Part shown: in pieces, positions 1-58,727 of the stretch | Layout of the letters: every line of letters begins with the position of its first letter | Position numbering within the stretch: position 1 is the stretch's first letter | Source of the DNA: Eledone cirrhosa | Lineage: Eukaryota | NCBI GenBank assembly: GCA_964016885.1 | Contig: OZ024745.1 | Coordinates: forward strand, 106,392,001 to 106,456,000 | Direction: 5' to 3' | DNA length: 64,000 nucleotides | Made by a program: the position numbers and the translations under genes | The notes under the pieces: generated by a model | What the model was told of the DNA's origin: nothing | Databases searched by the model: none | Seen by the model: the letters and a program-made list of their open reading frames with translations, nothing else

Positions 1-684
1 CTATTGCCATATGCGTAACATCTACGACAATTCTCACTTCCTTTTCGCCACGAATAAACTATAATTAAATTAGGCAACGTTTCCTCCTTGTTGTTATGTG
101 TATGATTTGAGCGAGATATGGCTGCTATTTCTAACAAGATAAGTGACACTAAGAGACTTCTTCGTTATCTTGTCAATACAAACAAAACTTAGTACCGCCA
201 GGTGTGTATACTTATACATATTGACACAAGAATCCAACAAATATGTACCACCTACCTGCACGCATACACAGATATACATACACATGTATAATCATACACC
301 CATTTTGGACACAAATACACACAAAATCTCACTATCATACTTTCACACACATAGACACATACATGCCTGTAGATAAATACATAGAGATACAGACACAAAT
401 AACATTACCCCGAATTTGGGAAACAGTGGGTGAGGCTAGAGGGAGAAAGGAGATGTGTGTTAGTAAGTGTGTGTATGAGATTTAGCGTTGATATACAGTA
501 TGTGTTTTTGGTGATTGGGAATCTGTGAATCTTCTCTCTCTCTCTCTCTCTCTCTCTCTCTCTCTCTCTCTCTCTCTCTCTATATATATATATATATATA
601 TATATATATATATATATATATATATATATATATATAATGAAATGACAGGAGGCTGGATTTGTGTAAATCCTTGAAAGGTTTATT

Positions 685-742
685 ATACTATGATCATTTC
701 AATGACCGGGTTCCGTATGAATCCGGTGATATCATCAGGTAT
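685..742 (-). ncRNA. Type I hammerhead ribozyme (inverted copy)
   Basis: Reverse complement of 3184-3241. Confidence 0.7.
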
Positions 743-3183
743 TCGAAATATAATACGTGAATGTAATAGGTAAAATCCATGGGGCTGAAAATCGAGACCC
801 GAGGGCGACCGCTATTCTGTTCCTTCAACCTCAGCCGGTCGCCCTGGAGTGACGTGGCCAAATTTTATAGTATGCTACTACCGGTCAGATGAACGAAAAC
901 AGAAAGAGATGGGAGCATAGGTTAACGTCGATCCCATGACACAAAGGTAAAAGAAAGAAAGAAAGGAAGGAGAGGAAGGGGGAAGAAAGAAGAAGAGAAG
1001 TCAGGGTTAATGTCAGCTAAAAGAGGAAGGTAACTACTACTGGTCAGATATAGGCAAGCAAGAGGGGGAAGGAATATAAGTCTGCAGGGAGGAGGAGAGG
1101 AGAGAAGGAAGGGAAGAGAGAAGTAGAAAAGTAAGGGTTGATGGCTACAAGAAGGAAGATAGAAAGGATAGGATGAAGTTAAAAAAATTTAATAATCAAT
1201 ATTCAATATTAAAGAGGTTAGAAAATTTAAAGTTCAACAGTTTAACAATTAATTATATAATAGTTCCGATTTGTTCTGTAATTTAAGGGTACTATTTGGC
1301 GGTTAAAACAACGGCCGCTCCCCGGGCCCCATGGCGAATTAAGCCACGCCGAGTATTTTCATTTACTGAAAGAAGGGGAAATTTATTTTTCCAAGCACTC
1401 TAGGTGAGCTCGTTCGCCACGGAGCTGGTCGTGCCGCCATTAAAACCCACCCAACAGTCCGACAGAAAGTTGGAACTTTAAAATTTAGCTTAGAGAAGTA
1501 AAAGAGTAATGGTTGATAGCTACAAGAAGGAAGATAGAAAGAGAGAGGAAGGAAGGTCGATATTAATGTCACACCACAGTCGGGCCAGGAGTGGCGCGAC
1601 AAAATTTTCACAGGGACTCGCATCTTAGCAGAGGTGAATATAATGGGGGTCAGTGTGTTACAATGTTTAGACTTATAGGATGAAGTTAAAAAATTAATAA
1701 ATTAATAATCAATATTCCATAGTAAAGAGGTTAGAAAACTTAAAGCTCAACAGTTTCAGGTTGATATATATAATAGTTCCGATTTGTTCTGTAATTTAAA
1801 GGTACTATTTGGCGGTTAAAACACCGGCCGCGCCCCAGGCCCCATGGCTAATTAAGCCACGCCGAGTATTTTCATTTACTGAAAGAAGGGGAATTTATTT
1901 TTCCAAGCACTCCAGGTGAGCCCGTTCGCCAGGGAGCTGGTCGCGCCGCTGTCGGACCGTTGGGTGGGTCTTAGCGGCGGCGCGACCAGCTCCCTGGCGA
2001 ACGGGCTCACCTGGAGTGCTTGGAAAAATAAATTCCCCTTCTTTCAGTAAATGAAAATACTCGGCGTGGCTTAATTAGCCATGGGGCCTGGGGCGCGGCC
2101 GGTGTTTTAACCGCCAAATAGTACCTTTAAATTACAGAACAAATCGGAACTATTATATATATCAACCTGAAACTGTTGAGCTTTAAGTTTTCTAACCTCT
2201 TTACTATGGAATATTGATTATTAATTTATTAATTTTTTAACTTCATCCTATAAGTCTAAACATTGTAACACACTGACCCCCATTATATTCACCTCTGCTA
2301 AGATGCGAGTCCCTGTGAAAATTTTGTCGCGCCACTCCTGGCCCGACTGTGGTGTGACATTAATATCGACCTTCCTTCCTCTCTCTTTCTATCTTCCTTC
2401 TTGTAGCTATCAACCATTACTCTTTTACTTCTCTAAGATAAATTTTAAAGTTCCAACTTTCTGTCGGACTGTTGGGTGGGTTTTAATGGCGGCACGACCA
2501 GCTCCGTGGCGAACGAGCTCACCTAGAGTGCTTGGAAAAATAAATTTCCCCTTCTTTCAGTAAATGAAAATACTCGGCGTGGCTTAATTCGCCATGGGGC
2601 CCGGGGAGCGGCCGTTGTTTTAACCGCCAAATAGTACCCTTAAATTACAGAACAAATCGGAACTATTATATAATTAATTGTTAAACTGTTGAACTTTAAA
2701 TTTTCTAACCTCTTTAATATTGAATATTGATTATTAAATTTTTTTAACTTCATCCTATCCTTTCTATCTTCCTTCTTGTAGCCATCAACCCTTACTTTTC
2801 TACTTCTCTCTTCCCTTCCTTCTCTCCTCTCCTCCTCCCTGCAGACTTATATTCCTTCCCCCTCTTGCTTGCCTATATCTGACCAGTAGTAGTTACCTTC
2901 CTCTTTTAGCTGACATTAACCCTGACTTCTCTTCTTCTTTCTTCCCCCTTCCTCTCCTTCCTTTCTTTCTTTCTTTTACCTTTGTGTCATGGGATCGACG
3001 TTAACCTATGCTCCCATCTCTTTCTGTTTTCGTTCATCTGACCGGTAGTAGCATACTATAAAATTTGGCCACGTCACTCCAGGGCGACCGGCTGAGGTTG
3101 AAGGAACAGAATAGCGGTCGCCCTCGGGTCTCGATTTTCAGCCCCATGGATTTTACCTATTACATTCACGTATTATATTTCGA

Positions 3184-3241
3184 ATACCTGATGATATCAC
3201 CGGATTCATACGGAACCCGGTCATTGAAATGATCATAGTAT
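3184..3241 (+). ncRNA. Type I hammerhead ribozyme
   Basis: ATAC-CTGATGA-[stem II accgg/ccggt]-GAAA-TGATCA-TA-GTAT. Stem I ATAC/GTAT, palindromic stem III, AATAAA at 3242. Confidence 0.72.
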
Positions 3242-3479
3242 AATAAACCTTTCAAGGATTTACACAAATCCAGCCTCCTGTCATTTCATTATAATATTTA
3301 ACTCCGTAATAGCACCACCAACTACAAAAACAAAGACGGTTGAACTGCTTTACGTTGAGTACTCTCTATATTATTGCATTACGATTGACCATACGGAATA
3401 GACCAGCTCTATACAGTGGTGAACCTCAAACCTGAATAAATATATATATATATATATATATATATATAGTAATAATAAT

Positions 3480-3708
3480 AAATTTGAAGACTAAAATCCA
3501 AAGAGGGCTCGATAAGGATAAATATATATCAAATATATATGAACCGTAGAGCAAATATTTATTAAAATAACAGATTAAAGTGTAAGCAAAAAATACGCTG
3601 CTTTCACCCTTAACGGGATCTTCTGTAACTCTGAGTTTCAGATGATCCTGTTAAGGGTGAAAGCAGCGATTCTTTGCTTAAACTTTAATCTGTTATTTTA
3701 ATAAATAT
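3480..3708 (-). mobile_element. Small fold-back element with degenerate hammerhead (CAGANGA core)
   Basis: Imperfect inverted repeat ~3556-3708. Both arms read CAGA(T/A)GA-tcc(t/c)gttaaggg-t-GAAA-gcagcg. Flanked by (TA)n. Confidence 0.5.
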
Positions 3709-4050
3709 ATATATATATATATTTATTAAAATAACATGACCCTCCCAAAGCATAACAATATATATATATAAAGATATATATATATATTCGTACTTAGTTG
3801 AGAGCGGAGCGAAATAGAGTACTCAATATCTAATTGGAGTTTAAATGTTCATTTCATTAAGGCTAAATAGTGAGTCACTATTTAGCTTTAATAAAATTTT
3901 AAATATACAGTATATAAATATATATATATATATATATATATATATATATATATATATATATATATATATATAAGTAAAAAGAAAAAAAAGATGAAATCGA
4001 AAATGCAACTGGAGTCTTATTTTTTTTTAAATATATGTATTTATTTGGTT

Positions 4051-57058: not shown

Positions 57059-57132
57059 CACACACACACACACACACACACACACATATATATATATATA
57101 TATATATATATATATATATATATATATATATA

Positions 57133-57545
57133 TATATTAATAAGAGGAATTCCAACTTTGTCTGATTTACTCGTTTTATTTACAATCCTTTAAAATTTAT
57201 AATGGTATTATAATAAAATAGTATGATAGACTATTAAATTCTAAGTGGTAATTGAACAAGTACTTTCATGCTTTCGCAATCTTCAGGTTCATAATATGTG
57301 GTGACAGTCAAGTTTGCAGAAAATTGCAAACTTTACTGTCACCACATATAATGAACCTGAAGATTGCGAAAGCATGAAAGTACTTGTTCAATTAGCACTT
57401 AAAATTTAATATTCTATCATACTATTTCATTATAATGCCATTATAAATTTTAAAGGATTGTAAATAAAACGAGTAAATCAGACAAAGCTGGAATTCCTCT
57501 TATTAATATAATCTTCTATACACAATCATACACACCCGTGTATAT
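57133..57545 (+). mobile_element. Fold-back element, ~186-bp arms, 6-nt loop, with minimal hammerheads (57253-57291 -, 57352-57390 +)
   Basis: TGAAC-CTGAAGA-ttgc(gaaa)gcat-GAAA-GTAC-TT-GTTCA, identical in both arms. Confidence 0.8.
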
Positions 57546-57570
57546 TTATCTATCTATATATATATATATA

Positions 57571-58492
57571 TAATGTAGGAGGTGAGTTTTATTGTAGTAC
57601 AATAAAGCAATGCAGATATCGGATAAGAAGCACTCTACAGTTTGTAGGACTGGAGTATACATAATATATAAGATCAGAAGATGGTTAAAGGAGTTCCATG
57701 TATTTTATTATGCGCATTTTGAAATTGCCATAATACTTATAAACATACACCTTTTTTGACGTTAGAATATTCATCCGCAATTATTTTTTCTCTCTATCTT
57801 CAAACTTTTTAATCTCAATACATATCAACTCCCTCTCTTTCCTCGTACATATTTTTCCCTTCGTTAATTTTCAAATTCTTTTAATTTATACATTATCTTC
57901 CAACGGTTTTCAACCTCTCTATGTAAAACAATATATCTTTTCTCAGTTATAAAAACTATCTCTTTCTCTCTATCACCCATCTCTCCCTCTCCACCTTCAC
58001 TCTCATCTCCTCCCCTTTTTTCATCCTTTCCACCCCCCACCCCTCTCTAAATAAAATATCTTTTCCTCGTACATATTTTTCCCTTCGTTAATTTTCAAAT
58101 TCTTTTAATTTATACATTATCTTCCAACGGTTTTCAACCTCTCTATGTAAAACAATATATCTTCTCTCAGTTATAAAAACTATCTCTTTCTCTCTATCAC
58201 CCATCTCTCCCTCTCCACCTTCACCTCTCATCTCCTCCCCTTTTTTCATCCTTTCCACCCACCCCCTTTCTAAATAAAATATTTTTCCCAATATCACACA
58301 TCAATCTAAAACTACTTTTCATATGTTGATTTAAAACTGCACTATCCACAAGTGTTTTTTAGCCTTCATATCATGTCCTCCTGTTTTATCTGATGAAAAC
58401 ACAAATATTATTGCATGATGATGTTTCTTTTTGAAATGCGCATAATAAAATACATGGAACTCCTTTAACCATCTTTTGATCTTATATATTAT
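57571..58492. mobile_element. Family B element, long copy with ~224-bp internal tandem duplication and hammerhead at 58384-58450 (+)
   Basis: Tail and arm at 57571-57724 (minus); inverted arm ends at 58492; duplication 57836-58058 / 58059-58282. Confidence 0.8.
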
Positions 58493-58634
58493 ATATATAT
58501 ATATATATATATATATATATATATATATATATATATATATATTGACATAAAGGGGTGTGATTTTACACTTTGATTTACAACAGTAATCACTATATACAAA
58601 CATAGATATATGGACGTGAGTCTACATGTGAAAA

Positions 58635-58727
58635 CATATATCTGAGGAGCTTTCGATTCCAGAGTCAGGAACGAACATAATCGTTCGTTCCTCGAGTTGA
58701 ATTGTAGCGAAACATATGTAATATGTG
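58635..58727 (+). ncRNA. Type I hammerhead ribozyme with extended stem II
   Basis: CATATAT-CTGAGGA-gct...aggaacgaac/gttcgttcct...agc-GAAA-CATATG-TA-ATATGTG. Confidence 0.8.

Follow-up and report, generated by a model that had tools for sequence, protein, structure and literature searches.

The 64,000-nucleotide window analysed here (Eledone cirrhosa, contig OZ024745.1, positions 106,392,001 to 106,456,000) contains many dissimilar repeats that carry type I hammerhead ribozymes beside (TA)n tracts. We hold with high confidence that these copies are the 3' ends, or pseudo-long terminal repeats (pLTRs), of at least 14 families of Penelope-like elements (PLEs), that 11 of these families are tied to genes for reverse transcriptase (RT) and GIY-YIG endonuclease elsewhere in the genome, and that the copies likely arose by target-primed reverse transcription (TPRT) into (TA)n, in which most events ended prematurely and many produced a second copy in inverted orientation. 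The window is AT-rich and microsatellite-laden and is part of a 3.0-Gb animal genome (G000:C5 in our numbering). The preliminary description of this stretch had proposed that the hammerheads are of PLE type, belong to many unrelated families at (TA)n, and have a self-complementary stem III, and had read them as a radiation of non-autonomous elements without an open reading frame (ORF), or of retrozyme-like elements. The first proposal is supported by the data below. The second does not hold for 11 of the 14 families, which are the 3' ends of protein-coding PLEs; only family A is ORF-less as examined.

Type I hammerheads were searched with a descriptor consisting of CUGANGA, stem II, GAAA, stem III, UH, and a stem I of at least 3 bp. 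Nine strict cores were found in the window (738-, 3188+, 12168-, 12409+, 56227-, 57286-, 57357+, 58390+, and 58642+). Stem III is a perfect palindrome in all nine (TGATCA, TATATA, TGCGCA, GTAC, or CATATG). The same descriptor gave no match on the reversed window and none on the complemented window. Dinucleotide shuffling, the check suggested in the preliminary description, was performed block-wise 200 times on the repeat-free window and gave a mean of 0.135 and a maximum of 2 strict matches, or a mean of 0.01 and a maximum of 1 when a palindromic stem III was required. When weaker and variant motifs are included, 20 motif sites in 14 families are present, the families being unrelated outside the core. 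These sites comprise all those listed before, together with an inverted partner at 38453 for the site at 38801 and a further family at 62891 (family I), both of which had been overlooked. A (TA)n tract with n of at least 5 lies within 250 nt downstream of 20 of the 20 sites, versus 28% of random positions (binomial p 1e-11, with paired arms not independent). Rfam reported no hammerhead in the window at the gathering threshold, and the top 150 of 359 E-value matches included none. Four candidates (6527, 21170, 40262, and 40422) were rejected; core strings are present and stems are absent. The copies in the window are as follows.

633..3440, both strands: family A, fold-back with arms at 633-1949 (minus) and 1977-3293 (plus), hammerheads at 738 (-) and 3188 (+), stem III TGATCA; an extra tail of about 150 nt on the plus arm only.
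3469..3705, both strands: family K, short fold-back, Hydra-clade PLE 3' end; cores CAGAAGA (3625, -) and CAGATGA (3639, +); near-palindromic 15-nt stem III.
3973..4151, minus: family L, Neptune-type PLE 3' end; core TTGAAAA at 4084 (U3-A8 covariant), stem II GCAG/CTGC, stem III CCGG.
12070..12612, both strands: family B, fold-back, Hydra-clade PLE 3' end; hammerheads at 12168 (-) and 12409 (+), stem III TATATA; tail of about 105 nt on the plus arm.
28401..28760, plus: family M, decayed, core CTGATAA (CTGATGA in most other copies seen), with a 47-nt inverted piece.
34939..37628, minus: family N, decayed Neptune-type PLE with broken RT and GIY-YIG frames at 36383-37628, a 3' untranslated region (UTR) of about 1.4 kb, and a hammerhead at about 35060-35020; its core is CCGAAGA, against CTGAAGA in 10 of 11 further copies.
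37992..38164, minus: family G, 3' end, core at 38081, stem III CATTG; other copies have a Hydra-type endonuclease lying 2.2 kb upstream.
38187..38890, both strands: family F, fold-back, Hydra-clade PLE 3' end; CCGAAGA cores at 38453 (-) and 38805 (+), stem III CAATTG; tail of about 160 nt on the minus arm.
42405..42702, minus: family H, copy 1, Nematis/Neptune-type PLE 3' end; core at 42644, weak stem III GAAC.
56128..56347, minus: family C, left (inverted) arm, Hydra-clade PLE 3' end; core at 56227, stem III TGCGCA.
56501..56846, minus: family H, copy 2, nested in a TA tract; core at 56770.
56876..57057: family O, decayed Hydra-clade PLE copy with CTGGTGA and a stem III deletion; CTGATGA in other copies.
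57137..57554, both strands: family D, fold-back, Neptune-type PLE 3' end; minimal hammerheads at 57286 (-) and 57357 (+), stem III GTAC; tail of about 50 nt on the plus arm.
57573..58489, plus: family C, right part; a displaced tail piece at 57573-57719 (minus), then 3' UTR with the hammerhead at 58390.
58542..58771, plus: family E, older and low-copy; core at 58642, long stem II, stem III CATATG; no ORF found.
62675..62945, minus: family I, diverged Nematis/Neptune-type PLE 3' end; core at 62891.

The stretch 56085-58860 is a nested pile-up, with C, H, O, D, and E lying in successive TA tracts within 2.8 kb.

Deviations from the canonical hammerhead concern the core in K, F, and L, and the stems in H, I, and M. 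The core at 38081- is intact, and its stem III is an odd-length near-palindrome. The two family H motifs, previously called weaker, are indeed so, with a non-palindromic stem III of 4 nt. Stem III of families A-G, L, and N can form a self-duplex and cannot form a hairpin. Six sites had been described as core-mutated. This is correct for 28506, 35026, and 57001, which are decayed members of families whose other copies are canonical; the sites at 3600, 4051, and 38801 instead represent the family-wide variants U4A, U3-A8, and U4C, respectively. Reading the family L core as CAGAAGA was rejected because no stem II is left, while the U3-A8 reading yields all three stems.

The connection to coding elements was determined at genomic loci with widely spaced hammerhead pairs, which were chosen on purpose for long copies. 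Eleven of the 14 families were traced to RT and GIY-YIG ORFs, six of the Hydra clade and five of Neptune/Nematis type, for G the endonuclease part only. Upstream of the family C hammerhead end, locus L011 has a contiguous 821-aa ORF that bears RT and GIY-YIG motifs; the 3' UTR of this intact element matches the window segment 57833-58489 at 87% identity. Family K has a 645-aa ORF flanked by two pLTRs (L078), family O a 758-aa ORF between two pLTRs (L316), family D ORFs of 476 and 775 aa (L093), and family H tandem units of 4,147 nt (L091/L092). The hammerheads of F and B are likewise linked to ORFs (L083 and L085 for F, L051 for B), and the order pLTR-ORF-pLTR is seen at L051, L078, L085, and L316. 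A coding link was present in 8 of 10 loci for family I and in at least 13 of 20 for family L; family N has coding frames in the window copy and in 3 of 11 other loci, and family G has an endonuclease fragment upstream in 2 of 5 long loci. Window copies map to the coding loci at 72-100%. Locus L093 (G000:C1:21871300-21881299) is an 8.3-kb palindrome of two full-length D elements, each with the 476-aa upstream ORF and the 775-aa RT-endonuclease ORF.

The proteins carry the motifs of two PLE groups. Hydra-type RT motifs are found in B (RRMRWK/ADKT), C (RRLRWT/SDKT), K (RLRWR/SDKT), O (RIRWR/SDKT), and F (RVRWR/ADKT); among these five, DKT is present in all and the exact RWK only in B. The CxCX5C linker, the lack of CCHH, and the late CxxC and CxH of the endonuclease occur together in B, C, G, and O, and in family K the linker was found in L078 and the C-terminal motifs in L082. 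The Hydra-type proteins are 31-51% identical to one another. O and K are sister families at 51% protein identity, and the core of O is canonical. In D, H, I, L, and N, a CX2-5CxxC linker lies upstream of GIY-YIG; D carries DKG, D, L, and N are alike, and the identity between H and I is 68%. Labelling these five families as Neptune or Nematis is provisional and follows what we take to be typical members of each group, not an RT tree.

Family O holds a TA/TG microsatellite-like tract of 1-3 kb within its own 3' UTR, between ORF and hammerhead (L316 = G000:C4:264281000-264290500, and L223), so that each move of the element would carry microsatellite sequence, and with it new TA targets, to other sites. 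A search with its protein yielded 61,821 first-look candidates, among them many with open frames above 750 aa. The protein family of L128 had been considered hammerhead-less; this was rejected, as the family O hammerhead lies beyond the long microsatellite UTR in longer stretches. The proposal of L121/L229 as a family L tandem unit was also rejected in favour of nested insertions.

Several observations weigh against the reading as PLE 3' ends. No ORF was found for family A, in 4 long loci of E, or in 5 long loci of M, the loci of E and M being too few to decide on coding capacity, and the link of G rests on two loci. Chimeric loci exist (L128 and L315), and therefore single-locus links can mislead. 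Pfam recognised neither the 821-aa ORF of family C nor the window frames. The PLE identification is based on motifs and on tblastn/blastp comparisons among these proteins and 25 database homologues, one of them named from Argonauta hians, and not on a tree with reference PLEs. On the ribozyme side, stem III of H and I is without meaningful self-complementarity, M fits the hammerhead fold poorly, stems I and III fitting badly in its other copies too, and for several single motifs the minimum-energy structure is not the hammerhead.

The arrangement of the copies was also analysed. In the fold-backs, one arm stops at a TA-like motif within the pLTR, and the other bears a tail of 50-160 nt. One-sided tails are present in A, B, D, and F, and in tandems the tail runs on into the ORF (L078). 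On tail-less arms, the distance from the scissile site to the TA is 53 nt in A, 55 in B, 46/47 in C, 52 in E, 48 in F, 49 in G, and 47 in O. Among the first 100 family C matches listed, all 17 opposite-strand pairs less than 1 kb apart point outward (hand count), as do all three same-family pairs reported in a random genome sample. The 5' ends differ between copies, which are dispersed singles or inverted pairs, and every copy keeps the uncut hammerhead junction. PLEs with an inverted 5'-truncated copy and a one-sided tail are described in Craig 2021 (PMC8557442). The fold-backs are such inverted 5'-truncated copies typical of PLE insertion and do not represent a distinct class of element with terminal inverted repeats.

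These features fit a mechanism in which the endonuclease would nick (TA)n, the nicked end would pair with the TA-like motif that lies 46-55 nt past the scissile bond in most Hydra-type families (B, C, F, G, and O) as well as in A and E, and the paired end would prime complementary DNA synthesis through the ribozyme. Early termination followed by fold-back or second priming may then give the inverted arm. Retention of the uncut junction in every copy leaves two candidate templates, tandem RNA that was never cleaved and RNA that was cleaved and then re-ligated into a circle, between which the present data cannot discriminate. With a stem III that is short and palindromic, no hairpin can form, and cleavage would therefore need two copies on one tandem transcript; the arms of a genomic fold-back could not act as such a dimer because they are on opposite strands. 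In vitro activity was low in Cervera & De la Pena 2014 (PMC4209133), including that measured for the dimer model.

Two other identities for the elements were weighed against PLE 3' ends. The first, the radiation of independent, non-autonomous, retrozyme-like elements mentioned above, is very improbable. The window copies are short and without an ORF, N excepted, E and M showed no ORF in their long loci, and family A is a unit of about 3 kb in which no ORF was found. However, the coding masters refute it for 11 of the 14 families, and the variable 5' ends and the dispersed singles or inverted pairs differ from the short head-to-tail arrays by which non-LTR (long terminal repeat) retrozymes are defined (PMC7229834; bioRxiv 10.64898/2026.07.22.740005). 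The second identity, fold-back DNA transposons resembling miniature inverted-repeat transposable elements (MITEs) with a TA target site and incidental hammerhead motifs, can practically be discarded. Long inverted repeats exist (1,317 nt at 100% in family A) with TA on both sides, but the arms are unequal in length, the tail is on one side, the junctions vary between copies, and many copies are single-armed. The arms are moreover 3' UTRs of RT-encoding elements, and the RT ORF links refute this identity.

Family A is a unit of about 3 kb with internal duplications, whose 5' part is shared at 91-100% by all 20 of the best loci. Two full units and these 20 loci gave no match to 26 database or own PLE proteins or to the family proteins reported here, except for one nested G end, and the longest stop-free frame is 100 aa. 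No contiguous ORF was found in 25 loci of an older A subfamily. Two candidate autonomous partners were rejected as chimeras: A sequence follows only 1 of 25 copies of the L128 ORF, and of L292/L315, L315 ends in a different 3' UTR. Because no PLE protein matches, no ORF exceeds 100 aa, and the apparent partners are chimeric, family A is likely non-autonomous on sequence grounds. It is dispersed and has a pLTR, a tail, and inverted copies, and it would ride as a passenger on PLE machinery.

The exact patterns of twelve families were searched genome-wide on both strands, with the reversed pattern as the control. The exact matches are as follows.

Family A: 5,749 (control 3).
Family B: 11,724 (control 0).
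Family C: 22,473 (control 4).
Family D: 7,441 (control 84).
Family E: 80 (control 0).
Family F: 720 (control 1).
Family G: 1,252 (control 0).
Family H: 10,889 (control 0).
Family I: 40 (control 0).
Family K: 21,218 (control 0), or 30,629 with a looser pattern.
Family L: 13,042 (control 0).
Family O: 25,176 (control 0), with a pattern that admits 4-nt loops; a pattern excluding them gave 161.

The twelve patterns sum to 119,804 genomic matches, or at least 40 hammerhead motifs per Mb. Families M and N were searched by DNA only, giving 2,721 and 2,127 first-look candidates, of which 40 were scored. An unbiased sample of 40 evenly spaced 10-kb stretches (400 kb) contained 34 motifs in about 15 families, i.e. 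85 per Mb, with 0 in the reversed control and 0.5 in shuffles. The cores were 21 canonical, 7 U4A, 4 U3-A8, and 2 U4C; stem III was self-complementary in 24 and hairpin-type in 10. Extrapolation gives a genome total of roughly 250,000 hammerheads, with a wide error because motifs come in pairs. Both densities can be compared with about 120,000 hammerheads in the 28-Gb axolotl genome, a rough comparison since the descriptors differ. Sampled loci L321, L328, L330, L333, L338-L341, and L350 hold further hammerhead families absent from the window (stem III CTAATTAG, CCGCCGG, CTAG, CCACTGG, TGCA, and others).

The natural core variants bear on what the ribozyme does. In family K, the U-turn is CAGA (U4A) in 96 of the first 100 looser matches, which include subfamilies that differ in stem II, while stem I with its extension, stem II, and the near-palindromic stem III are retained. 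CTGA is carried by 644 of 21,218 exact matches (3%); an ancestral canonical subfamily was considered and rejected, as all 15 fetched copies are inversion junctions that read the CAG of the partner arm as CTG. Contigs of three sequencing runs covering the K pLTR showed no change at U4A among the matches listed, which has no bearing on expression. Of the sequencing runs listed as containing the sequence, none was an RNA run. The U4C core of F and the U3-A8 core of L are family-wide. The U3-A8 covariant core has already been reported in Schistosoma PLEs (PMC4209133), and U4C reduces activity, yet suffices in a viroid (Perreault 2011). Mutagenesis in PMC9901934 gave low activity for U-turn mutants except the C3-G8 swap; weak cleavage is hence the default expectation for U4A, which is predicted to weaken cutting in family K. 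No report of a natural U4A hammerhead was found in the literature searched, which excluded Figure 5 and the supplements of Perreault 2011 and subscription papers. U4A and U4C are absent from the Hydra hammerhead table in the supplement of Craig 2021 (PMC8557442), and the part of PMC4209133 used here does not mention U4A.

These variants raise a different alternative, which concerns the role of the ribozyme and not the identity of the elements: the ribozymes may be largely vestigial passengers, with retrotransposition on uncleaved RNA and no self-cleavage. We consider this less likely than not. Consistent with it, family K multiplied to about 30,600 copies that bear U4A throughout its subfamilies, the core of F is U4C, stem III is poor in H and I, another abundant fold-back family that inserts into TA tracts of the window has no visible core, and the uncut junction is retained in all copies; Naiads proliferate without hammerheads (PMC8557442), and the low in vitro activity cited above points the same way. 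Against it, about 15 families unrelated outside the core keep the core and three paired stems of differing sequence, which is hard to explain without selection on the fold; the U3-A8 pair of L is compensatory, and K keeps all three stems. A further proposal, which is speculative and which we consider rather unlikely, is that family K, with about 30,600 copies, long open frames, a fixed CAGA U-turn, and stems I-III paired, represents a natural core variant, previously unreported, that would be still functional or deliberately slowed. Under the same proposal, K and its canonical sister O would be a ready test of whether PLE ribozymes must cut, and the genome, possibly with about 250,000 hammerheads, would carry the densest load found on record.

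The core-less family is located at 11295-11483, 24758-24883, 37735-37929, 60882-61061, 61669-61886, and 62430-62648. It is an abundant TA-inserting fold-back family with a one-sided tail and no hammerhead core in the sequence seen. Among the fetched loci, 67 arms were counted, and no ORF was found in the short upstream stretches. It resembles a PLE end that lacks a ribozyme, perhaps of the Naiad type.

The Hydra-clade PLEs described in Craig 2021 (PMC8557442) resemble the elements found here. They share a single ORF with RT and C-terminal GIY-YIG, the RWK-like, DKT, CxCX5C, CxxC, and CxH motifs, a 3'-proximal canonical type I hammerhead with a short palindromic or near-palindromic stem III, (TA)n insertion, and a 5'-truncated inverted copy at the 5' end. 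Octopus bimaculoides is represented in the supplement of that paper by Hydra-1_Obim, which targets (TA)n and has a hammerhead. In comparison with this one family listed for octopus, at least six families are present here, with tens of thousands of copies each; the units are 3.3-4.7 kb between pLTRs versus less than 3 kb, and the tails are 50-160 nt versus 30-40 bp. The Neptune and Nematis clades of the same paper share with the families found here the C-terminal GIY-YIG, the CX2-5CxxC linker, two cysteines between GIY and YIG, the pLTR hammerhead, and microsatellite targets.

The metazoan PLE minimal hammerheads of Cervera & De la Pena 2014 (PMC4209133) are similar in having many sequence families per genome, a long stem II, a short stem I, a palindromic stem III, and the U3-A8 core, and motifs of truncated PLEs there are mostly single or in opposite-strand pairs 100-700 bp apart. 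The number differs: 2,000-9,000 hammerheads per genome are given there, versus no fewer than 119,804 matches to exact patterns here and roughly 250,000 by estimate. Non-LTR retrozymes (PMC7229834; Li, Clavereau & Pollet 2026 preprint, bioRxiv 10.64898/2026.07.22.740005) share the type I hammerhead and a PLE origin; the lack of a protein is shared by family A only. Theirs are short tandem repeats of about 50-970 bp, whereas family A is dispersed and about 3 kb, and no short head-to-tail hammerhead array is present in the window. A 2026 repeat annotation of Octopus vulgaris (PMC13282606) gives 31 recently active Penelope-like families, with no mention of ribozymes in the part used here, and no relevant catalogue of octopus hammerhead ribozymes was found in the literature searched.

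The basic finding is thus ordinary: the element class and its ribozyme have been published, as have the TA target and the fold-back layout. Judged by the literature searched, the families are probably new members of this known kind. Value is added by the scale, with exact patterns giving at least 40 motifs per Mb and sampling about 85, and by the many young families with intact ORFs that occur beside natural core variants (U4A, U4C, U3-A8, weak stem III). With both side by side, the question of what PLE hammerheads do becomes testable in one genome; family K with U4A is a natural test of the need of PLE ribozymes to cut. The dispersed, ORF-less family A would sit between full PLEs and retrozymes. 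For annotation, such fold-backs are easily mis-called MITEs or microRNA hairpins, and Rfam misses them.

Other repeats are also present in the window. A 3.3-kb degenerate (CTAACC)n interstitial telomere-like array (25094-28402) lies directly 5' of the family M copy. A repeat of about 200 nt, resembling a short interspersed nuclear element, is found in many copies, often as inverted clusters (14100-14310, 20420-20720, 29800-29990, 31915-33380, 39660-40050, 43560-44180, 47800-48000, 52490-53920, and 58920-59105), and 48726-48783 is the tRNA-like head of another repeat. Three segments without a Pfam match (17568-18086, 29136-29675, and 49535-50071) resemble C-terminal parts of other non-LTR retrotransposon proteins.

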